Source: Candidatus Aenigmatarchaeota archaeon
GTDB taxonomy: Archaea > Aenigmatarchaeota > Aenigmatarchaeia > CG10238-14 > SCSR01
Reading direction: 5' to 3'
DNA length: 46,132 nt
NCBI GenBank assembly: GCA_039000165.1
Contig: JAWBTW010000006.1
Span: 1-46,132 of the forward strand
In this document: in pieces, positions 786 through 33,488 of the stretch
How the letters are laid out: the number at the start of each line of letters is the position of its first letter
Numbering within the stretch: position 1 is the first letter of the stretch
Notes under the pieces: generated by a model
Databases searched by the model: none
Seen by the model: the letters and a program-made list of their open reading frames with translations, nothing else
Told to the model about the DNA's origin: nothing
Made by a program: the position numbers and the translations under genes

Positions 786-2381
786 ATGATTAAAAACATA
801 AGGTTTTTAGTAGTTTTAGCTTTTTTAGCAATTTCTGCTTACTTTTTGCTTGCTCCTTTACTTTTTGCATCAAAAGGGGTTGTTGTAGTTTCCATAGATG
901 AAAATAGTAAGTGTGAAGGAATAAGGGAGGGAAGCATAATAACTGAAATGCGTGGTACAGCAATTTCAAGCGAAGAAGATTTTGAAAATTATTTGAAAAA
1001 TGTTAAGCAAGGGGAATACGTAAGCATGGTAATAAACAACTTGCCAGGAGGTTGCACAGCTTTAAACGATAGCTACTTGGGAATAAAAGTAAGAGATTTA
1101 GAAAAGAAAGTTTTAAAGTTTGGAATTGATTTAGCAGGGGGAAAAGTTTCGATTTTTTCTTCACCACAAAACCTAGAAAAAGTGAAAGAAATTCTGGAGA
1201 AAAGAATAGAAATTTTTAAAGTTCCTGAAGCCAGCGTTTCGATTTCTGACAAAACAATAAAAATAATAAGTTTGAAAGATGAGAAGCTTGAACCTTTACT
1301 TATAAAAGGAAAATTTGAGGCAAAAATCTTTGAGGAAATTAAAATAAAAAACAACACTGGAAAAATTCCTCTTGGACAAGAGGATTACACTATAGTCCTT
1401 GAAGATGGTAAGATAAAAATTGATGGAAATTACTACAAAGAAAACGAAACCTTTACTTTACAATCCATAGAATTTACGTTAAAAAACATAACTAACTCAA
1501 GTGTTTATCTTGAAGCTCTAGTTTTCACAAAAGAAGATGTAAAAGTTCTAGCATATGGGTTTGTAAAGTATAACCCCTCAGCAAAACTTTACGAGTTTAA
1601 TATTCCTGTAGAAATTTCTGAAGAAGCTTCTGAAAGAATTTCAAAGATCATAGACAGGATGCCGACAACAACAGAATTTGGAGCTATAGTTTTAAACGGA
1701 AGGTTAATTTACTATTTAGATGGAAAAGAAGTTAGCAACCTAGCAATTCCCTTTAGCATGGTTGGGAGAAAAATTGAGAGCATTTCTATCCTTGGTTTTA
1801 GAGAAAGTGAAGAGGCAGCAAGCCTAGAGAAAAACAAAATTGAAGCTTCTTTAAAAACAGATGAGCTTGAAAAGATGGAATTAATTAAAACAGTTGAACT
1901 AGAAGCAAAATACCCGATGCTTTTAAATTATTTTTTCCTCGTCTCAATTTTAGAGGCGGCCATTTTTTCTTTAATTTCTTTTACTAGATATAAACAAGGA
2001 AAATTTTTAATTTCACTGTTCCTTCTTTCTTTACTTCAAATCTTCTTGATATTTGGGGTTATAGCAATTTCGCAAAGCTTAGTTCCAAACAGCTGGTTAA
2101 TAAATTCTTCCACTCTTTTTGGAAGCTTAACAGCAGAGACCTTAACTTTAATTCAATTTATGTTTATTCTTGAGAAAAGAGTGAGAAAAAAAATAATAAG
2201 CTTAGAATTCAAGTTAAAAAAGATAATAAGTTTATCCAACCTTCTAAACATTTTAACGATATTTTCTTCTCTCGTTCTTATTTTTGTTTTCAAAAACTTT
2301 GGATTAAGCATGCTAACAGGTTTTTTCTTTAGCTTTCTATTTTTAGTCCCACTTCTTGATGAAATAGTAAAATCTACTTGA
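786..2381 (+). CDS. secD: Divergent SecD-like translocase subunit with N-terminal PDZ-like domain
   Basis: N-terminal TM, PDZ-like segment (GVVVVSIDENS...GIREGSIITEM), SecD signature LKFGIDLAGG, 'ILEKRI', C-terminal TM helices. Confidence 0.7.
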   Translation: MIKNIRFLVVLAFLAISAYFLLAPLLFASKGVVVVSIDENSKCEGIREGSIITEMRGTAISSEEDFENYLKNVKQGEYVSMVINNLPGGCTALNDSYLGIKVRDLEKKVLKFGIDLAGGKVSIFSSPQNLEKVKEILEKRIEIFKVPEASVSISDKTIKIISLKDEKLEPLLIKGKFEAKIFEEIKIKNNTGKIPLGQEDYTIVLEDGKIKIDGNYYKENETFTLQSIEFTLKNITNSSVYLEALVFTKEDVKVLAYGFVKYNPSAKLYEFNIPVEISEEASERISKIIDRMPTTTEFGAIVLNGRLIYYLDGKEVSNLAIPFSMVGRKIESISILGFRESEEAASLEKNKIEASLKTDELEKMELIKTVELEAKYPMLLNYFFLVSILEAAIFSLISFTRYKQGKFLISLFLLSLLQIFLIFGVIAISQSLVPNSWLINSSTLFGSLTAETLTLIQFMFILEKRVRKKIISLEFKLKKIISLSNLLNILTIFSSLVLIFVFKNFGLSMLTGFFFSFLFLVPLLDEIVKST

Positions 2382-2904
2382 AAATTTTTCCTAAAATTTT
2401 TGAAGAAGCTCTTTCTGGTAAAGCTTTAGGAAAAACCAAACCTAAGAGAGCTCCAACGATAACATCCGAAGGATAATGCACACCTGAATAGATTGAAGAA
2501 AGAGGAATCAGGAAAAGCAAGTATATCGATAAAAATTTTTTAAGCCAGCTTGGAGAGTTTTCTGGAATAAAGAAAAAAGAAAGATAGGATATGAAGGCAT
2601 GGGAAGAAGGAAAGGATGGGTCTGCTTTCTTGAAAACAACATTTATCTCCTGGTCTGCATCATAAGGCCTTTCTCTTCCAACTAAATATTTAAGTGAAAC
2701 GACAAAAATATAGCCAATAACGGCAACAACAAAAAGATGGAAAAGTTTCTTATGTTGTCTATTTCTAAATAAATCATAAGCGACATAAATCAAGTAAATA
2801 TAAACAGAATAAATAAGGAAAATTGCGAAATAAGCTAAGTGAACAGAAAAAAAGTTAACGTTGAGAAATTTTACAACTTCCAAATCTACCTCGGCTAAAT
2901 TCAT
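2374..2904 (-). CDS. PAP2-family membrane phosphatase
   Basis: K-x6-RP, SFPSSH, GVHYPSDV motifs; hydrophobic segments. Confidence 0.9.
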   Translation of the reverse strand: MNLAEVDLEVVKFLNVNFFSVHLAYFAIFLIYSVYIYLIYVAYDLFRNRQHKKLFHLFVVAVIGYIFVVSLKYLVGRERPYDADQEINVVFKKADPSFPSSHAFISYLSFFFIPENSPSWLKKFLSIYLLFLIPLSSIYSGVHYPSDVIVGALLGLVFPKALPERASSKILGKIFK

Positions 2905-5588
2905 AGCCTGACATACCTCCCTCTTGTCTCACCAAAGTAAAACAGAAGTTCGCCACCACAAACTAAACATTTTCCGATTAAAGGAACTCTTCTGAAGGTT
3001 TTATTACATTTGTTACAAACAAAACCGTCAAAATCGCTCAAAACTTCTTCTTGTTTCTTGTGATTAAAAGCTTCTGAAATGGAGAGAAGCCTTCCAAAAC
3101 TCATAAGCTCGGACTTTTTAACTCCTAAAGCATCGAAAACCCTTTCCAAAGGTGGAAGGAGCTGGCTTTCTATATAATATTTTGAGTCGATTTTTAGGTT
3201 GTGAGTTTTAACATACTCTGGATCTTCTGCTCTTTCTGAAAGAAGTTGAGTTCCTTGAATTATCACATAACCAATTCTATCCCCAATTCCCGGAGCTCCT
3301 GCAGGTGACCTTTTTCTTAACTTTTTAACTAATTCAATATGAGGTTGAACTCCTTTGTATTCCTTTAAAGATTTTGTTATTCCTCTGGTAATTATCAAAT
3401 CCTCTATAGGAATCTCATTTCTACTGAGTTTTGTTAAAACTTCTCTAACATATCTTAAAGCTTTTTTCGGGTTCTGCTCCTTCAAAATTATATCAAGAAC
3501 TTTATACAAAGTTTTGGAAACCAGATCACACCAGTCTCTCCTAACAGTTTCTATTCCTTTCATCACTATTTTTTCCTTCCATTCTCCGTTAGATTTTTCG
3601 AAGCTCCAACCTGCATATCTTTTCTTTGTCAACACAAGCAAAGTCTTAAAAATACCTTCTATTTTCATTTTAACTATACCTGCATGCTCTTTGTTTATAA
3701 ACTCAGCTAACTCTTCACCTAACTTTAAAGCTTCTTCTAAATCAGTTGTTAAAAGCTTCACCATTATAGAATCTGTATCGCCATAAACAACCTCATAACC
3801 TTTCTTACTTTCAACAATATTCTTTGTTTTTTCTATCAAAAACCTTCCACAGCTTGTTATCGCGTTTGCGATTTCCAAAACATAAAGCCTTGCTCTTACA
3901 TAGCCTGTATATCCATAAAAGGCGTTTGCCATTATTTTCAGGGCATATTGCTTCGCATCTAAAACTTTTTTCTCGTTTTCGTTTTTTGCCTTCTCCATTT
4001 CTTTCTTAACCCTGTCTCTTTCTTCTATCAAAAATTTCAAAATTTTGGGAATAATTCCTTCCCTTACTTCCTTCCTTACAAAAAAAGCACCAGAAGGTGT
4101 TTTTATGAGCTCACCTTCACTTTCCTTGACAACCAAAGTCGTTGGACAAATGTTAAAAGAAATAAATATAGAAGGATACATCGAACGGAAGTCAAGATAA
4201 GCAACACAATTCGTATGCAGACCAACTTTTGGCTCTAGAACCAAAGCTCCCTTCAAACCTTTTACTTCTCTTTCTTCCATTCTTTTGAAAACTTCATCAG
4301 AAGAAGGCTTAACAGGGATAACAAAATCTCTCTTGTTAAATTCACGAAGCAATAAGTTCTCTACTCTTGCACTTTCTTTACTGTCTAAAACATCTTGCAA
4401 AAGTAAACCTGAAACTTTTGAAAGTTCCACAAATTTACTCAACATGTCCTTCTCCACTAAAAGTTTCAAGGTAAGTTCAGCATCCTTTCTTGCATAATTT
4501 ATCAATTCGTGCTTCTGCTCTTCAGAACCGTTCCAGAATTTTGAAATCTCACTATGAGTTATATCGACTTTATCTTCCTTCAGCAATTCTTTCGCAACAT
4601 CTCCTAGGCCGTACCTTTTAAGCCTAAGCAAGCCTTTTTCGACAGCCTCTTTAACAAGCTCATAAACATCAACCACAACCCTCCCAAAAACAGAGTGTCT
4701 ATACCTGATGCCAACTTTCTTTGAACTTGTAGCTTTTTGCTGGCACCTTCCTAAAACTCTTGGTATTTTGTTAACTCTTAACCTTTCAAGAATGTATGGT
4801 AAATCAAAATTGTTTATGTTGTAACCAACTATCACATCCGGATCGAATTTTTTTATCACTTCGACAAACTCCTGGAGCATTTCAGCCTCATTTGAAAAAA
4901 CGACAACATCCTTTTCAAATTTTTTAACAGGTTTTGAAACTAAAACTAATGTATTGTTGTTTTCGTAAGCAGGAAAAAAGGAAAGGCTTATTATTATTAT
5001 CGGGTCTTTTAAAGGGTTGGGTGTACCTTCCTTTCCTGGAACAACTTCTATATCTAAGCTTAAGTATTTTAGGTTAACATTTGATTTTTCATCTATACTT
5101 TCAATTTTTCTTACTTTAATCACTTTATCTGCCTTGACAAGAATAGTGTTCATGTTTTGACCCTCAACTTTAATCCAACCCATTCCCGAAATGTTAAAGT
5201 CTGCCATAAATCTGTATTTGAAAAGGATGTCTGCTTCAAAAATCTTATCGATAAAATCTTTTTTGTTAAGCTCCTCTCTTATTTCTGGAACTTTGGAAGG
5301 ATCAGTAAGAGTTACTCTTAACATTTTTACCTTATTCTTGCTGAATCCTATTGGTAAAAATTTTTCCTCTTCCTTAATTTCAACTAATAAGGAGAAAAAT
5401 TTTTTCTTCATAAAATCCACAAACTCTTGCTCGCAACCTTTTTTAGGTAAAACGTAAAAATAAGGTAAAAAATTCTCGTAAAAGGCACAAACTGTTTTTC
5501 CTTCTTTCGTTTTTCCGAAAATTCTTATTATTGGTTTGCCGTCTAAAGGAATGTAATCGCAGTCAAGAACTTGAAATATCACTTCCAT
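2901..5588 (-). CDS. polB: Family-B DNA polymerase with C-terminal DP2-like zinc finger
   Basis: ExoI DIE, ExoII YNINNFD, ExoIII YARKD; Pol motifs DFRSMYPS, KIMANAFYG, YGDTDS; C-terminal CNKC-x-RRVPLIGKCLVCGG. Confidence 0.97.
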   Translation of the reverse strand: MEVIFQVLDCDYIPLDGKPIIRIFGKTKEGKTVCAFYENFLPYFYVLPKKGCEQEFVDFMKKKFFSLLVEIKEEEKFLPIGFSKNKVKMLRVTLTDPSKVPEIREELNKKDFIDKIFEADILFKYRFMADFNISGMGWIKVEGQNMNTILVKADKVIKVRKIESIDEKSNVNLKYLSLDIEVVPGKEGTPNPLKDPIIIISLSFFPAYENNNTLVLVSKPVKKFEKDVVVFSNEAEMLQEFVEVIKKFDPDVIVGYNINNFDLPYILERLRVNKIPRVLGRCQQKATSSKKVGIRYRHSVFGRVVVDVYELVKEAVEKGLLRLKRYGLGDVAKELLKEDKVDITHSEISKFWNGSEEQKHELINYARKDAELTLKLLVEKDMLSKFVELSKVSGLLLQDVLDSKESARVENLLLREFNKRDFVIPVKPSSDEVFKRMEEREVKGLKGALVLEPKVGLHTNCVAYLDFRSMYPSIFISFNICPTTLVVKESEGELIKTPSGAFFVRKEVREGIIPKILKFLIEERDRVKKEMEKAKNENEKKVLDAKQYALKIMANAFYGYTGYVRARLYVLEIANAITSCGRFLIEKTKNIVESKKGYEVVYGDTDSIMVKLLTTDLEEALKLGEELAEFINKEHAGIVKMKIEGIFKTLLVLTKKRYAGWSFEKSNGEWKEKIVMKGIETVRRDWCDLVSKTLYKVLDIILKEQNPKKALRYVREVLTKLSRNEIPIEDLIITRGITKSLKEYKGVQPHIELVKKLRKRSPAGAPGIGDRIGYVIIQGTQLLSERAEDPEYVKTHNLKIDSKYYIESQLLPPLERVFDALGVKKSELMSFGRLLSISEAFNHKKQEEVLSDFDGFVCNKCNKTFRRVPLIGKCLVCGGELLFYFGETRGRYVRL

Positions 5589-5597
5589 ATTCTTAAA

Positions 5598-6767
5598 TTA
5601 AGTGAAATCTATTTTAATAGTTTCTCTTGTTTTTAAGTTAACTAACCAAAAAACAGGTTTGGTTAAAAAACTTCCTGTGGTTAGGATTGTTGTTCCCTTG
5701 TAATTTAAAACTGAAGGAAAATGAAAATGACCAGAAGCTAAAATATCTGGAACTAAATCTATGATGAATGGGTTTGGGATGTAAATTTGCTTTTGTGTTT
5801 GTGGGATTTGTCTCTTCCTGAGTATGTTTAATAAAATCTTTTCAGGTAGAGCATTGAAAAAAGAAAAATCAAAATTTGGATGAAGAATTAGAAGATTTAA
5901 GGATTTTTCAACTTTAAGAAATGATGGACTTTCTATGAATTCTTCTTTTTCTGGATCTATCTCTCCCTTAAGCCAGGTATAATGGTAGCCTTTTGGTAAG
6001 TTACTAAACATTTCTTCAAAATCCTCAACTCTTGAAGAAATGTCGCCAAGAAAAAAAACATAAAGTTTTTTGTATAAGGAGTTGTTTATCCAATCTAAAA
6101 ATTTCTCATAACTTTTTTTGTTGAAATTCTTGTCATCCATATGAAAATCTGAAACAAAAAGACAAAAAGCCTCTTCAGAAGTTTTACTAATTTCTTTTTT
6201 AAGTGGAATTTCAGGTAAAACAACCTTTTTCACATAAATCCTTTCACCTTCTCTTTCACAAACCAAACCTAAAACTTCATCTTCAAGAATAAAGTTAAAA
6301 TCTTCACTCAAATTCTCAAAGTAAACTGTTTGTTCGCCAGTTAAGTCTTCCACTACCAAATACTTTTCGTTCTCATTTTTTTCTTTCACCATAACTATTA
6401 ATGAAAACTTCCTTGATTTTGGTGAGATTTTATTTATTGATATTAAATTAACTAAGTCCAAATGCTTAACCAAAAATTTTTTTATTTCCTCATATTTTGT
6501 GGAAAGGAAGTTAGTATAATCAGAAACGCTTAGAATCTTATCTTCTTTTTTCGGAGTTTTTAAGATTTCTGAGTAATAGGTTAACTTTTTTTCTATTTCT
6601 TTTAAAACATCTAGAGTCACTATTAAGGGGTAGTTTGATTTTTTTAGTTCTTCCAAGTAGAAATTTATGTTCTTTTTTTCAAGTAAGTAATCTAGTGCTT
6701 GTGGGTTTAGTTGGAAGCCGTTTTTCAAAAATTCCTTAATAATTTGTTGCCTTTCCATACAACTCAT
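5598..6767 (-). CDS. PolD small-subunit (DP1)/B-subunit-like protein, probably nuclease-degenerate
   Basis: N-terminal helical domain (IIKEFLKNGFQLNPQALDYL), OB fold (IVMVKEK...VEDLTG...ILEDEVLG), phosphoesterase motifs SDFH, GD, PDILASGHFH, YKGTTIL. Confidence 0.85.
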   Translation of the reverse strand: MSCMERQQIIKEFLKNGFQLNPQALDYLLEKKNINFYLEELKKSNYPLIVTLDVLKEIEKKLTYYSEILKTPKKEDKILSVSDYTNFLSTKYEEIKKFLVKHLDLVNLISINKISPKSRKFSLIVMVKEKNENEKYLVVEDLTGEQTVYFENLSEDFNFILEDEVLGLVCEREGERIYVKKVVLPEIPLKKEISKTSEEAFCLFVSDFHMDDKNFNKKSYEKFLDWINNSLYKKLYVFFLGDISSRVEDFEEMFSNLPKGYHYTWLKGEIDPEKEEFIESPSFLKVEKSLNLLILHPNFDFSFFNALPEKILLNILRKRQIPQTQKQIYIPNPFIIDLVPDILASGHFHFPSVLNYKGTTILTTGSFLTKPVFWLVNLKTRETIKIDFT

Positions 6768-6775
6768 AGGAATTT

Positions 6776-7033
6776 TTATCTTTTTAATATATAAACTGTA
6801 AGACCTTTCTTACCTTCTTTTTTAGAATGAGGTGTTGGGATTGCTTCTATTTTTCCAATTTCAACAAGTTCGTTTAAATATTTATCTACAGTGTTCCAAC
6901 TAACTTCCTTACCAATTTTTTCACTAATCATACTACGAATTGCGTTTATAGAAATAGGGGTGTTTACATCTTTCAAAACTTCCACTATAAGGTTTTGAAC
7001 TTCAAACCTTTTACTTGGTCTTCCTCTTTTCAT
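6776..7033 (-). CDS. Small winged-helix protein
   Basis: 85 aa; basic N-terminus KRGRP, HTH (SINAIRSMISEK...VSWNTVDKYLNELVEIGKI) and wing; 8 nt upstream of the DP1-like gene. Confidence 0.75.
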   Translation of the reverse strand: MKRGRPSKRFEVQNLIVEVLKDVNTPISINAIRSMISEKIGKEVSWNTVDKYLNELVEIGKIEAIPTPHSKKEGKKGLTVYILKR

Positions 7034-7048
7034 CTTTTCACTATCATT

Positions 7049-7062
7049 TTTTATGAACTTTC
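7049..7062 (-). repeat. Inverted copy of the array core (GAAAGTTCATAAAA on minus strand)
   Basis: TTTTATGAACTTTC is the exact reverse complement of the 14-mer repeated in 7122-7207. Confidence 0.85.
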
Positions 7063-7071
7063 TAAATTAAG

Positions 7072-7080
7072 TATAAATAA
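7072..7080 (-). promoter_or_regulatory. Putative TATA box of the wHTH-DP1-polB operon
   Basis: TTATTTATA on the minus strand about 40 nt upstream of ATG 7033. Confidence 0.5.
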
Positions 7081-7121
7081 ACAATATAAAATTTTCAGGA
7101 AATTTTTTTACCTTATTACTT

Positions 7122-7207
7122 TTCATAAAATTTTTCCGAAAGTTCATAAAAATTGTTTGAAAGTTCATAAAATTTTTCCGAAAGTTCATAAAAATTGTTT
7201 TTGAAAA
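7122..7207 (+). repeat. Four tandem 21-bp direct repeats in ABAB arrangement
   Basis: TTCATAAAATTTTTCCGAAAG (7122, 7164) alternating with TTCATAAAAATTGTTTGAAAG (7143; variant at 7185). Confidence 0.92.
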
Positions 7208-7282
7208 TTATTAGAAGTGAAGAATTTTGAAAAACATTAAATTTCTTATAATATACAGCTATTCAAAAAATTTTCCAAATCT

Positions 7283-7669
7283 TTACAAAAATTTCATCAA
7301 CCCATTTATCATGAAGAATTTTATGATGATAGCTCGAACAAAATTTTCTTTTCCCCTTAGTGGTTCATAGCTGGTTGGGTTGGAATGTTTTACTTTCACT
7401 AACAAATTCATCTTAACCAATTTGTTAAGCCTTTTTCTTAACGCTTCTATCCCTATCTTAAAGTGGTGAGTGTTCTTAAGTTCGCTATAAAGAAGTGGAA
7501 AACAATACGGTTGAGTATCGTTTGGAAACTCTTTACCTGTCATGTAAAATTTTCTTAAAATTTGAATGTCAATAAAATCCAAACGTTCGATTAAAGATAG
7601 AATTTCATCCTTCATTTCTAAATTTTTTTCTATAGAGATATTATCCATAAGTGAATCTGTGCTGTTCAT
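7283..7669 (-). CDS. Winged-helix protein of unknown function
   Basis: LDFIDIQILRKFY, HTH-like LLYSELK...IGIEALRKRLNKLVKMNLLVKV, wing NPTSY; ends LMKFL. Confidence 0.65.
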   Translation of the reverse strand: MNSTDSLMDNISIEKNLEMKDEILSLIERLDFIDIQILRKFYMTGKEFPNDTQPYCFPLLYSELKNTHHFKIGIEALRKRLNKLVKMNLLVKVKHSNPTSYEPLRGKENFVRAIIIKFFMINGLMKFL

Positions 7670-7752
7670 TTTTTATCCCATCATCGAGTAAGTAAAATAA
7701 ATGTGATTATTTTTTCCTCTTCAATAATAAATACATTTCGGTAATTCAGAAT

Positions 7753-8439
7753 TTATATCAGATTGATTATTTTAACGTCAATTTTTTCATCGACAATATC
7801 GATTATTCCACAATACCCTTCGGGAAATCTCCCAGAATTTATTATCTTTGTGTTTTCAATTTCGTCAATTCCTCTTGCTTCATGCACATGTGAGCATATC
7901 GCAACTTTTGGTTTATACTTTTCTATAAAATTTCTTACAGCTTCTGATCCTATATGTGCTCCTGTATAAGCAATATCAACCTTCGTGTTAAACGGAGGAA
8001 CATGGGTAACTTGAATTTTTATCTTACATTCTTTCACTTTTTCATAACCTTTCCTCAAACCTTCTTCAATCTCATTTTCATTGGGTTCTAAAGGTGTGTT
8101 AAAAGGAGTTTTAGCACCACCAAACCCATAAAAACCAACGTTTTCTATTATCTTTCCTTCACCATGCAGGCTTATTCCTTTTTCTTTAAATAATTCTACA
8201 AGTTCCTTATCAAAATTTCCTGGAACTGCAAGTATAGGTTTTTTAAAAGTTTTAAATTCTTCTATTACAAGCTCACCTATATCCCTAGCTTCAAAACCTT
8301 TAGGAAGATTGTAATCAGTGAAGTCTCCAAGCAAAACTATAACATCAAAATTTATGAAAGAAATTTTATCCATGTAAGTAATTATGTTTTCAACATCGTT
8401 ATGGATGTCGCTTGCGATTAAAATCCTCATTAAACTCAA
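7753..8439 (-). CDS. Calcineurin-like metallophosphoesterase (Icc-related)
   Basis: SDIH, GDFTD, PGNFD, THVPP, HVHE motifs. Confidence 0.9.
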   Translation of the reverse strand: MSLMRILIASDIHNDVENIITYMDKISFINFDVIVLLGDFTDYNLPKGFEARDIGELVIEEFKTFKKPILAVPGNFDKELVELFKEKGISLHGEGKIIENVGFYGFGGAKTPFNTPLEPNENEIEEGLRKGYEKVKECKIKIQVTHVPPFNTKVDIAYTGAHIGSEAVRNFIEKYKPKVAICSHVHEARGIDEIENTKIINSGRFPEGYCGIIDIVDEKIDVKIINLI

Positions 8440-9388: not shown

Positions 9389-9859
9389 ATGCTTACCGAT
9401 AAAATTAGGGAAATTCAAAAAGAAATATTAAACTTCAAAGGAGTACCCATAATAGTAGAAGGAAAAAAAGATGAGGAAGCTTTAAAGAGGCTTGGTTTTC
9501 AAAATATTGTAAAGATTTCCGGCAAACCCTTGGAGAAAGTTTTTGAAGAAGTTAGCAATTTCAAATCTGTTGTCATTCTTTCAGATTTCGATGAAGAGGG
9601 TAAAAAAATTTTTGCAAAATTGAGAAAATTACTCTCTTCAAATGGAATAAAAGTTCACACTTTTTTAAGGAACAAGATTAAATCAACTCTCAAAATCAAA
9701 AAAATTGAAGAAATAAACTCTTTAACAAAGCTTATGGAGGATGATTACTATGGCAAAACTTGCTCAATCTACGATAAAATATTTAATAGAAGTAGAATTT
9801 TCTTGCGACGGGATGGTGGAAAAACCAGACGTAATAGGGGCAATATTCGGGCAAACTGA
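9389..9859 (+). CDS. Small TOPRIM-domain protein (RNase M5-like)
   Basis: IIVEGKKD and ILSDFDEEG TOPRIM motifs. Confidence 0.85.
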   Translation: MLTDKIREIQKEILNFKGVPIIVEGKKDEEALKRLGFQNIVKISGKPLEKVFEEVSNFKSVVILSDFDEEGKKIFAKLRKLLSSNGIKVHTFLRNKIKSTLKIKKIEEINSLTKLMEDDYYGKTCSIYDKIFNRSRIFLRRDGGKTRRNRGNIRAN

Positions 9860-10607
9860 AGGTTTGCTTGGTCAAGATTTGGATTTAAGGGAATTGCAAA
9901 GAAGTGGAAGAATAGGAAGAATAGATGTTGAACTTAACGTGACTGAAGAAGGAAAAACTATTGGTAAGTTCTTTGTTCCTTCAAGTCTTGATTCTTCAGA
10001 AACAGCTTTACTAGCAGCTTCTTTTGAGACTATAGAAAGAATTGGACCATGCAACGCAAAGGTTAAAGTTAAAACAGTAAAGGATGTGAGAAATGCTAAG
10101 AGGGATTATGTTCTTAAAAGGGCGAACGAGATTTTAGAAAAACTTTTGAGCGAAGAGATTCCTTCAACTTCAAAAATTACTGAGCTACTAAGGGAAAACG
10201 TGAGAGCTGCACAGATAACCGAATTTCAAGGCTTACCAGCAGGCCCTGATGTTCAAAATTCAGACGAAATAATAGTAGTTGAGGGAAGAGCAGATGTTAT
10301 TAACCTCTTGAAAAATGGGATTAAGAATGTTATCGCAATAGGAGGAGCAACAATACCTAAAACAATAATAGATTTGACAAAAGAAAAAGTTACGACTTTG
10401 TTTGTAGATGGTGATAGAGGAGGAGAACTAATCATCAAAGAGCTTCTTAACCTCGGTGAAATCGATTATATAGCAAGAGCACCAGAAGGTAAAGAAGTGG
10501 AAGAACTAACAAAAAAAGAAATTTTTAAAGCTTTGAGAGAAAGGATTTCTATCGAGCAATATAAACCTGAAGTCAAAACTAAGGAGCTAACTGAATTTAC
10601 CCAATAA
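9750..10607 (+). CDS. dnaG: Archaeal DnaG (primase-like/exosome-associated), short form
   Basis: VEKPDVIGAIFGQTEGLLG, ELQRSGRIGRI, VVEGRADV, DGDRGG, GKEVEEL. Confidence 0.93.
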   Translation: MAKLAQSTIKYLIEVEFSCDGMVEKPDVIGAIFGQTEGLLGQDLDLRELQRSGRIGRIDVELNVTEEGKTIGKFFVPSSLDSSETALLAASFETIERIGPCNAKVKVKTVKDVRNAKRDYVLKRANEILEKLLSEEIPSTSKITELLRENVRAAQITEFQGLPAGPDVQNSDEIIVVEGRADVINLLKNGIKNVIAIGGATIPKTIIDLTKEKVTTLFVDGDRGGELIIKELLNLGEIDYIARAPEGKEVEELTKKEIFKALRERISIEQYKPEVKTKELTEFTQ

Positions 10608-33175: not shown

Positions 33176-33193
33176 ATGTTAGACGTCTAACAT
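33176..33193. repeat. Perfect palindrome ATGTTAGACGTCTAACAT (copy 1)
   Basis: 18-bp perfect inverted repeat. Confidence 0.9.
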
Positions 33194-33224
33194 TAAGATG
33201 CTATACCTCTTCAGGGTTTCTGAG

Positions 33225-33346: not shown

Positions 33347-33393
33347 CTACTTTAAAATATAGTTTGAAATAAAAAGTTTTTTACTTTTTAGTA

Positions 33394-33409
33394 TGTTAGA
33401 CGTCTAACA
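33394..33409. repeat. Perfect palindrome TGTTAGACGTCTAACA (copy 2)
   Basis: 16-bp core identical to copy 1. Confidence 0.9.
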
Positions 33410-33488
33410 AAAGCAAAATACAATTACAGGTTTTAAATTTAAATAGCATCAAGATTGTTTAAAAATATAGGAGTTTAAAAGTTAAATT

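Follow-up and report, generated by a model that had tools for sequence, protein, structure and literature searches.

The window studied here is the whole of a 46,132-nucleotide contig (JAWBTW010000006.1; C6 below) from a hot-spring archaeon of the Aenigmatarchaeota (DPANN), whose genome assembly (G000) comprises 783,037 bases on 25 contigs and is 91.6% complete. Our subject is a 249-bp interval at 7034–7282, the box interval, which carries an array of phased sequence repeats (boxes) upstream of a DNA polymerase operon. All genes at 2374–8439 lie on the minus strand. The operon opens with p85, the gene for an 85-residue winged helix-turn-helix protein (6776–7033), and continues with a DP1-like small subunit (5598–6767; NF003118, E = 1.1e-40, under that model's cut-off) and a family-B DNA polymerase with a DP2-type C-terminal zinc finger (PolB, 2901–5588; TIGR00592, 427.7 bits), with a PAP2 protein gene beyond PolB in the same run. 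The neighbour upstream of the box interval is p128, which encodes a 128-residue winged-helix protein (7283–7669), followed by a metallophosphoesterase gene (MPE, 7753–8439) and then, on the plus strand, by genes for Hjc, a CBS protein and Toprim/DnaG-like proteins.

Residues 856–883 of PolB resemble the C-terminus of DP2 (E = 3.3e-5), and DP2 itself (PF03833) is not found anywhere in G000. The pair of DP1 and a PolB with a DP2-type C-terminal domain is the eukaryote-like two-subunit polymerase published for Aenigmatarchaeota (PMC7544198 and PMC12680538, each in part); the accessible text of the former treats the B6-aenigma1 group and notes that DP2 is absent, and that of the latter reports a yeast two-hybrid interaction of the polymerase pair.

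Phased boxes between p85 and p128

The original prediction described four direct repeats in this interval, with a 21-bp period and an alternating ABAB order, facing an inverted 14-bp copy across about 60 bp of very AT-rich DNA. Period and order are as described: a repeat finder gives a 37-nt unit whose copies at 7122–7158 and 7164–7200 are 100% identical, with a 78% identical copy at 7143–7179 between them, so that starts lie 21 and 21 bp apart and the alternation amounts to a 42-bp higher-order repeat. The 14-mer GAAAGTTCATAAAA occurs exactly at 7138–7151, 7159–7172 and 7180–7193 on the plus strand (direct boxes 1 to 3, each 21 bp past the last, scoring 22.9, 20.5 and 22.9 bits on the box matrix introduced below) and once, also exactly, on the minus strand at 7049–7062, where the inverted copy had been placed. 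This proximal box belongs to the p85 coding strand, 15 nt before the ATG at 7033, and is a candidate operator. The first of the four predicted units (TTCATAAAA at 7122) proves to be only a partial box; degenerate box 0 (TACTTTTCATAAAA, 7117–7130, plus strand) keeps the phase of the array and carries 4 mismatches, which fall in the GAAAG part. The AT-rich spacer (7063–7137) thus measures 75 bp from the inverted box to the first full direct box, the shorter figure of about 60 bp holding only as far as the partial box, and at 14.7% GC it is indeed very AT-rich. Within it, a block of the sequence TAAATTAAGTAT, or ATACTTAATTTA on the coding strand (7063–7074, minus strand), adjoins the proximal box. 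At the far end of the interval, a weak box-like site (CCAAATCTTTACAAAAAT, 7274–7291, plus strand, 10.7 bits) overlies the p128 stop codon about 84 bp (4 x 21) past box 3, and in congeners a stronger site stands at the same place, 79–86 bp from the array.

The original prediction had proposed counting the box genome-wide, and we find four exact copies of GAAAGTTCATAAAA in all of G000, every one of them within 7049–7193. At up to one mismatch there are 9 matches, compared with 7 for a reversed-pattern control, and the 5 that lie outside the interval are scattered singly. The box matrix behaves similarly, with 4 of the 5 matches of at least 20 bits in G000 falling inside the box interval and 4 of the 11 matches of at least 16 bits in a congener's 802-kb contig falling in the homologous interval, and it reveals no second cluster of boxes in either. 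The best matrix matches elsewhere in G000 sit within open reading frames (ORFs) or at their ends, and we set aside the idea of a p85 regulon, the best motif matches outside the interval falling in ORFs.

The interval also stands out without reference to the motif. In a genome-wide scan for local repeats it ranks directly after a CRISPR array on contig C19 and four coding repeats; by repeated 9-mers it is fourth among 109 intergenic stretches of at least 180 bp, and of the three ranked above it two come from the CRISPR locus and one is coding-like. Its GC content of 18% is the lowest of the 40 intergenic stretches listed. Leaving aside the CRISPR array and coding repeats, no other non-coding part of the genome is as dense in repeats. 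An Rfam scan of 6700–7700 gives only a chance-level snoRNA match (18.4 bits, against a 45-bit threshold). Among the sequencing runs listed as containing the locus, none is an RNA run.

A tandem array may be an assembly duplication, and the original prediction had raised this worry; we find the array upheld. Logan contigs from three runs (two studies) end at the repeat, as is usual for k-mer graphs, and cannot fix the number of copies, and each run holds a 65-nt piece (7129–7193) that bridges two units, with no alternative joint in the contigs of the three runs. The same three full boxes are present in three separately assembled congeners.

Conservation of the boxes with p85

p85 is present in 31 of 41 related genomes, and it precedes the DP1-like gene in all 20 loci compared. 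In 18 of these syntenic loci p128 stands on the far side of the interval, contig edges cutting off the other two, and MPE lies beyond it in 17. Among four congeners (alignment A6) the direct boxes and the TAAATTAAGTAT block are kept, the latter invariant across the genus, while the rest of the interval diverges (mean column identity 73%); the proximal box is largely kept, with 2–3 substitutions in G001 and G002, and the spacer sequence is unconserved past its first ~30 nt.

We then described the boxes more widely with a matrix that started from the genus and was refined iteratively across all loci, counting 22 p85 loci; the matrix having been trained on these same intervals, its counts describe the pattern and do not test it. 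A box on the coding strand lies at most 60 nt from the p85 ATG in 17 of the 22 loci, at least two distal boxes are present in 13, and neighbouring boxes on the same strand are spaced by 21 (15 times), 22 (4 times), 44, 63 and 79–86 bp. Boxes, phasing and layout are conserved across genera and two families; a lack of conservation in relatives, which the original prediction had named among its refutations, is not what we see.

Genome G028 of family f5 is instructive, as it carries six boxes at exactly 21 bp, 292–397 nt upstream of p85, and one inverted box at about –40, and has neither p128 nor MPE next to p85, another small winged-helix gene standing in the place of p128. With an array and a proximal box retained where p128 is not beside p85, the boxes go with p85, and the box set is certainly a cis-element tied to p85.

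These comparisons bear on whether the boxes belong to another protein, for example p128 or the remaining divergent Orc1 discussed below, with p85 a mere neighbour. p128 flanks 18 of the 20 loci and is the better conserved of the two proteins, and the weak box over its stop codon would suit such a role. The arrangement in G028 argues the other way, as does the place of the best-conserved box at the start of p85 itself. The motif is, moreover, neither enriched nor clustered in five genomes that have the divergent Orc1 and lack p85, where its counts lie under the reversed-pattern control, nor does it cluster in 394 kb from a sixth genome of this kind. We consider another binder improbable.

Distant pairs of p85-like and p128-like genes in family f14 also have direct repeats before the p85-like gene. 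At locus L139 (3800–4750, genome G104; also at L142) the p85-like gene encodes 88 residues and the p128-like gene after it 126, both standing among genes for surface proteins, with TTTCTCCGAATTCCAA twice upstream, 63 bp apart, and a TCCGGA-N6-TCCGGA palindrome between both genes. This order, repeats–p85–p128, is a circular permutation of the p128–repeats–p85 order in the window.

The interval stands in the slot of an ancestral origin

We gathered the DP1 loci of relatives by a search with the DP1-like protein and read their upstream regions. In families f4 and f7, sister families within the same taxonomic order, all six loci share one gene order: Hjc, MPE, an interval of 190–690 bp, a 404-residue Orc1/Cdc6 and DP1. 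The interval contains an origin recognition box (ORB) of the form TTTCCAnnnGAAA-N4-GGGGT about 60–70 nt from orc1, and in two loci (L113 and L116) the pattern also matches another ORB, oppositely oriented, at the end next to MPE; in the other four only the orc1-proximal ORB is matched, and similar inverted G-strings are seen by eye at the MPE end. The core between the ORBs is AT-rich and holds a palindrome, TATAAC-N3-GTTATA, in all six of these Orc1-type intervals, and a mini-ORB-like TTTTCCAATAGAAAAAGG lies at the orc1 promoter (L113–L118). By its sequence features, the MPE–orc1 interval reads as a textbook oriC. The Orc1 encoded beside it is an orthologue of Sulfolobus solfataricus Orc1-1 (2qby_A, 384.7 bits), and the f4 and f7 genomes also carry a second, divergent Orc1 (183–269 bits on TIGR02928).

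In the p85 clade (families f1, f5 and f6) the same slot reads MPE, p128, boxes, p85, DP1, PolB. In a 121-genome sample of the phylum, p85 is found in 35 genomes, comprising all 32 of f1, f5 and f6 and only 3 of the 89 others, where the matches are distant (44–63 bits). A full-length match of the Orc1-1 type (at least 431 bits) shows the reverse pattern, with 0 of the 32 and 87 of the 89; of the two exceptions among the latter, one is fragmented and one gives no match. Thirteen p85-bearing genomes checked singly have only the divergent Orc1 type, at 156–279 bits.

The ORBs are gone as well. A matrix built from seven ORBs of f4 and f7, which score 30–36 bits against it, finds no match of at least 8 bits in any of 20 p85-type intervals, our own included, and a regular-expression search also finds none, in agreement with the original prediction that the interval holds no canonical ORB. 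Elsewhere the best scores are 20.1 bits in G000 and 16.2 bits in contig C1 of congener G001, compared with the 30–36 bits of the ORBs themselves. The f4/f7 palindrome, by contrast, survives exactly in 4 of the 20 p85-type intervals, against a background of 2–3 matches per 0.8 Mb at up to one mismatch (G000 and G001). Together, the shared synteny and the surviving palindrome indicate that the intervals are homologous, and that p128, boxes and p85 took the place of the ORBs and Orc1-1.

Orc1 matches in G000 lie on C3, C10, C12 and C7 and none on C6, so that the window holds no cdc6, as predicted, and no orc1/cdc6 adjoins the interval. The further description of the locus as Orc1/Cdc6-independent was too strong, since the divergent Orc1 remains on C3 (36562–37590, 279 bits) and a very weak third candidate on C10. 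The latter (C10:22478–23380, minus strand; L010) encodes a very divergent Orc1/Cdc6-like AAA+ protein of 354 residues (TIGR02928, 76.7 bits; Pfam Cdc6_lid, 23.6 bits, under cut-off), is not found in G001 at E ≤ 1e-10, and may therefore be confined to one strain or belong to a mobile element. No sizeable intergenic region lies beside the remaining Orc1 in the p85 clade or in f4; by eye, the intervals beside this Orc1 hold tRNA-like genes and not repeats, and in G024 the region next to it shows no ORB-like repeats.

In the literature searched, we find no description of a replacement of Orc1-1 and ORBs by boxes and p85, and neither 'winged' nor 'Orc1' occurs in the accessible text of PMC7544198. 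Supplementary Table 1 of PMC12680538 (in part) gives Cdc6-1 and Cdc6-2 copy numbers for 18 rows of Aenigmatarchaeota, and may already record part of the pattern of gene loss.

p85 and p128 are predicted winged-helix proteins

The predicted structure of p85 (mean pLDDT 83.7) is an H-H-H-beta-wing-beta winged helix behind a disordered MKRGRPS tail, and p128 is likewise modelled as a winged helix, with additional N- and C-terminal helices, in keeping with the two flanking winged-helix genes of the original prediction. Invariant residues of p85 fall in the N-terminal MKRGR tail, in helix 3, the recognition helix (SWNT..KY), and in the wing (PHSK...G.TVY), and the basic tail includes RGRP, which would match the core of an AT-hook. 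In Pfam, p85 scores 23.1 bits on the winged helix of TBPIP, where the cut-off is 22.8. Fold matches are generic; the best are Zur/Fur, PadR/LmrR and TA0346 (E from 3.5e-4, Z up to 10.9), others include RTP and Phr, and 184 chains reach Z ≥ 8.

Searches for kinship with known initiators are negative. p85 matches no Rep, Cdt1 or Cdc6 family (Pfam; NCBIfam for Rep), neither p85 nor p128 matches a CDT1 family at E ≤ 0.01, their profiles find nothing under E = 0.13 among PDB sequences, and no Orc1, Rep or Cdt1 chain is prominent in the fold searches with either protein, a result that excludes nothing. We also considered p85 as a relic of the winged helix of Orc1-1, and find descent unsupported, as the hhalign comparison of p85 alignment A1 with an alignment of Orc1-1 covers 14 columns at E = 0.35. 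The same alignment compared with the divergent Orc1 gives E = 0.0041 at a probability of 8%, and profile comparison of p128 with Orc1-1 gives E = 0.25. On contig C17 (551–1007 and 2322–2558), a 457-bp intergenic stretch (19% GC, no obvious repeats) adjoins several small winged-helix genes, of which one is a weak paralogue of p85 (E = 0.014 when searched as protein, profile score 27.9 bits).

p128 has no Pfam family and is far better conserved than p85, with 203 relatives and 54–91% identity in a 35-sequence alignment (A2), and it is not found in any of five f4/f7 genomes of the Orc1-1 type. Plasmid centromeres (parC/ParR, tubC/TubR) are direct-repeat arrays that precede an operon with a small DNA-binding protein, and TubR is among the structural matches of p128, all of which are weak (E ≥ 0.019; 4asn_A, E = 0.024). 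The operon here has no motor gene of the ParA, ParM or TubZ type, exact phasing conserved across two families argues against a neutral tandem duplication, and the agreement of contigs from three runs and two studies with three separate congener assemblies argues against an artefact. We regard it as very improbable that the array is a centromere-like partition site, a neutral duplication or an assembly error.

The proximal box as a candidate operator of p85

Read on the coding strand, the order before p85 is ATACTTAATTTA, then GAAAGTTCATAAAA, 15 nt and the ATG. We infer that the genus-invariant TTAATTTA block, just upstream of the proximal box, is a TATA-like element. If so, transcription would start a few bases before the p85 ATG, and the proximal box would cover the stretch that RNA polymerase must occupy. 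Archaeal repressors usually bind in this stretch between TATA and start. The distance from box to ATG ranges from 0 to about 22 nt among genera, and the box itself is therefore not the TATA element. The original prediction had offered, as its alternative, a repressor site between a TATA box and the ATG at 7033. The position of the inverted copy, which recurs in 17 of 22 loci, supports an operator well, and its place below an invariant block stands; the label of TATA box is our reading of that block.

These observations suggest that the boxes are very probably p85 sites, and that the proximal box probably autoregulates the p85–DP1–PolB operon. The winged helix of p85 would read the GAA-N2-TTC core of the box, and its invariant N-terminal MKRGRP tail the adjoining A/T tract, and p85 bound at the proximal box would block RNA polymerase and so repress its own operon. 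The three to six upstream boxes, two turns apart on one helix face, would load p85 cooperatively, and the array could loop to, or feed, the proximal box. To the combined proposal that the boxes are p85 sites, that the proximal one is an autorepression operator, and that both belong to a p128–boxes–p85 module which occupies the phylum's ancestral oriC slot in place of the Orc1-1 gene and its ORBs, we give roughly even credence.

Some observations weigh against this proposal. The array lies 105–160 nt upstream of the p85 start in G000. Sites of archaeal activators and repressors usually lie nearer to the start than this, or than the ~290–400 nt seen in G028, and so remote an array may indicate some function other than transcription. 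In L029, L032 and L033, whose boxes are variants, helix 3 is identical, so that protein and site do not co-vary, and the counts across relatives perhaps reflect one evolutionary event.

A possible role in replication

The same evidence may be read more boldly, in a way that overlaps with the operator explanation and does not exclude it: the interval would be the chromosomal replication origin of the clade, its phased boxes serving as iterons for p85, perhaps together with p128. The spacer of 15% GC between opposed boxes would then be the unwinding element, MCM would be brought by p128 or by the divergent Orc1, and p85 would in addition regulate itself through the proximal box, as happens in iteron plasmids and, apparently, with Orc1-1 in the sister families. 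The MCM of G000 (C7:18445–20454; L150) is intein-free at 669 residues; the MCM genes of many close relatives encode 981–1137 residues, with LAGLIDADG/intein domains.

This reading draws on the positional homology of the interval with the ORB/Orc1-1 origin of f4 and f7 (MPE, intergenic, Orc1-1 or p85, DP1, PolB), on the loss of Orc1-1 throughout the very clade that holds p85, on the absence of any ORB from G000 and contig C1 of G001, on the want of a sizeable intergenic region beside the remaining Orc1, on the survival of the ancestral palindrome and on the repeat density of the interval, and it agrees with the layout of the iteron replicons in PMC10602881 (in part). Syntenic replacement raises it well above what the array alone would allow. 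The opposed boxes (7049–7062 inverted; direct from 7138) flank the spacer in the layout of an unwinding element, in form only. Two other repeat clusters, at C8:30732–31988 and near 1060–1140 on C17, were considered as candidate origins and rejected, as they look like coding sequence.

Against an origin stands p85 itself, a single winged helix of 85 residues with no ATPase and no second domain, and with no detectable kinship with Rep, Cdt1, Cdc6 or the winged helix of Orc1-1. The clade keeps one Orc1, which could fire an origin unseen in an assembly that is only 91.6% complete, and some archaea replicate without an origin or Cdc6 (PMC5663688, in part). The distant p85-like/p128-like pairs coexist with Orc1-1 in families f14 and f22, away from replication genes and with upstream repeats of their own; from their setting they look like ordinary regulators, and their coexistence with Orc1-1 implies that the p85 family is not an initiator by nature. 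A deletion of orc1 would also remove the promoter of DP1 and PolB, and a new promoter with its own regulator suffices as an explanation.

Compositional evidence does not bear on the question. Cumulative GC skew in the window and in contig C1 of G001 follows gene strand only, the range of strand-corrected GC3 skew in the latter is reached by 889 of 1000 permutations, and gene-orientation walks are uninformative. At a canonical oriC (G035:C11), serving as positive control, the strand-corrected GC3 skew is reached by 444 of 1000 permutations and the walks are likewise uninformative, and we therefore dropped skew as evidence in either direction.

On balance, an origin at this interval is a real possibility that we judge to fall short of probable. 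Its fuller form, in which Orc1-1, an initiator near-universal in archaea, and its ORB origin were replaced in situ in the f1/f5/f6 clade by an iteron-like replicator of phased boxes and one or two small winged-helix proteins (p85, p128), with the interval a working origin and p85 a new minimal origin-recognition protein, is advanced tentatively and with somewhat greater doubt; p85 would then work alongside the remaining divergent Orc1 or engage MCM directly. Such a module may derive from a circular element by capture, given the permuted gene order in f14.

Comparison with known systems

The layout is closest to that of iteron plasmids (F RepE, pPS10 RepA, R6K pi, RK2 TrfA; PMC10602881, in part), which also have direct repeats of about 20 bp phased at two turns, an AT-rich stretch adjoining, a winged-helix gene next door and an inverted copy at the promoter of that gene. 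The interval has three full boxes and one partial box at 21 bp, and six at 21 bp in G028, and the inverted copy is an exact box 15 nt from the ATG. The differences are that the locus is chromosomal and archaeal, that a role in initiation is predicted only, and that the plasmid Rep proteins comprise WH1 and WH2 whereas p85 is a single winged helix without a Pfam or NCBIfam Rep match. Iteron plasmids also have an inverted pair of half-iterons at the promoter, where one full inverted box stands here.

With archaeal oriC1 and its Orc1-1/ORB system (Sulfolobus, Pyrococcus; PMC12141716 and PMC1904270, each in part) the interval shares opposed sites that flank an AT-rich core, a slot upstream of the DP1–polymerase operon as in sister Aenigmatarchaeota, and one site at the promoter of the downstream binder gene. 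It differs in that the box sequence is unrelated to the ORB, with no ORB of dyad TTTCCAnnnGAAA plus G-string GGGGT in the box interval, and in that the candidate binder p85 is not an AAA+ protein and gives E = 0.35 against the Orc1-1 winged helix.

Sulfolobus oriC3 with WhiP (PMC12141716, in part) sets a precedent, in that a winged-helix protein other than Orc1 defines an origin on an archaeal chromosome. The Sulfolobus origin-binding protein UBP was considered as a relative and rejected, having a different fold, a beta-hairpin saddle (same source). p85 and p128 differ from WhiP in matching no CDT1 family, and the origin function of WhiP has been shown genetically, whereas here it is predicted only. 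WhiP is a relative of Cdt1 and has more than one winged helix.

In autoregulation of the Phr type, the operator and the stretch from TATA box to start overlap. Autoregulated archaeal winged-helix repressors such as Phr of Pyrococcus (2p4w) resemble p85 in being small and in having a site between a TATA-like element and their own start; the differences here are an extra phased array of three to six sites 100–400 nt upstream, the lack of any other target in the genome, and a locus that is a former origin. From sequence and predicted fold, the layout thus resembles both iteron replicons and autoregulated repressors, and the iteron, Orc1-1/ORB and WhiP classes fail on the protein side.

Other features of the genome

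Among the plus-strand genes beyond MPE, two Toprim ORFs (9389–9859 and 9741–10607 of the window) share 119 nt in different frames; they could be one DnaG-like gene that is split or frameshifted, or two separate ones. Copies of the palindrome TGTTAGACGTCTAACA stand in intergenic DNA at 33180–33200 and 33393–33410 of the window, where they flank what by eye is a tRNA-like gene, and at 79201 and 79505 on contig C1 of G000. The genome's top repeat cluster is the CRISPR-like array (C19:6000–8650), whose period is about 67 bp.

Discussion

The box array is a real, conserved and lineage-specific feature, and its setting is a replaced ancestral origin. The p85 clade has lost Orc1-1 and all ORBs, has kept the gene neighbourhood on the origin side, and has new conserved phased boxes in the same slot. 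Known archaeal origins are almost always defined by Orc1/Cdc6 on ORBs, the WhiP origin of Sulfolobus being the known exception. If the boxes are only regulatory, the locus shows how a replicative polymerase operon was rewired after the loss of an initiator gene and its promoter. If replication also fires here, a cellular archaeal chromosome would have an origin in the style of iterons, and the locus would offer a tractable case in which an initiator was replaced by a non-orthologous one.

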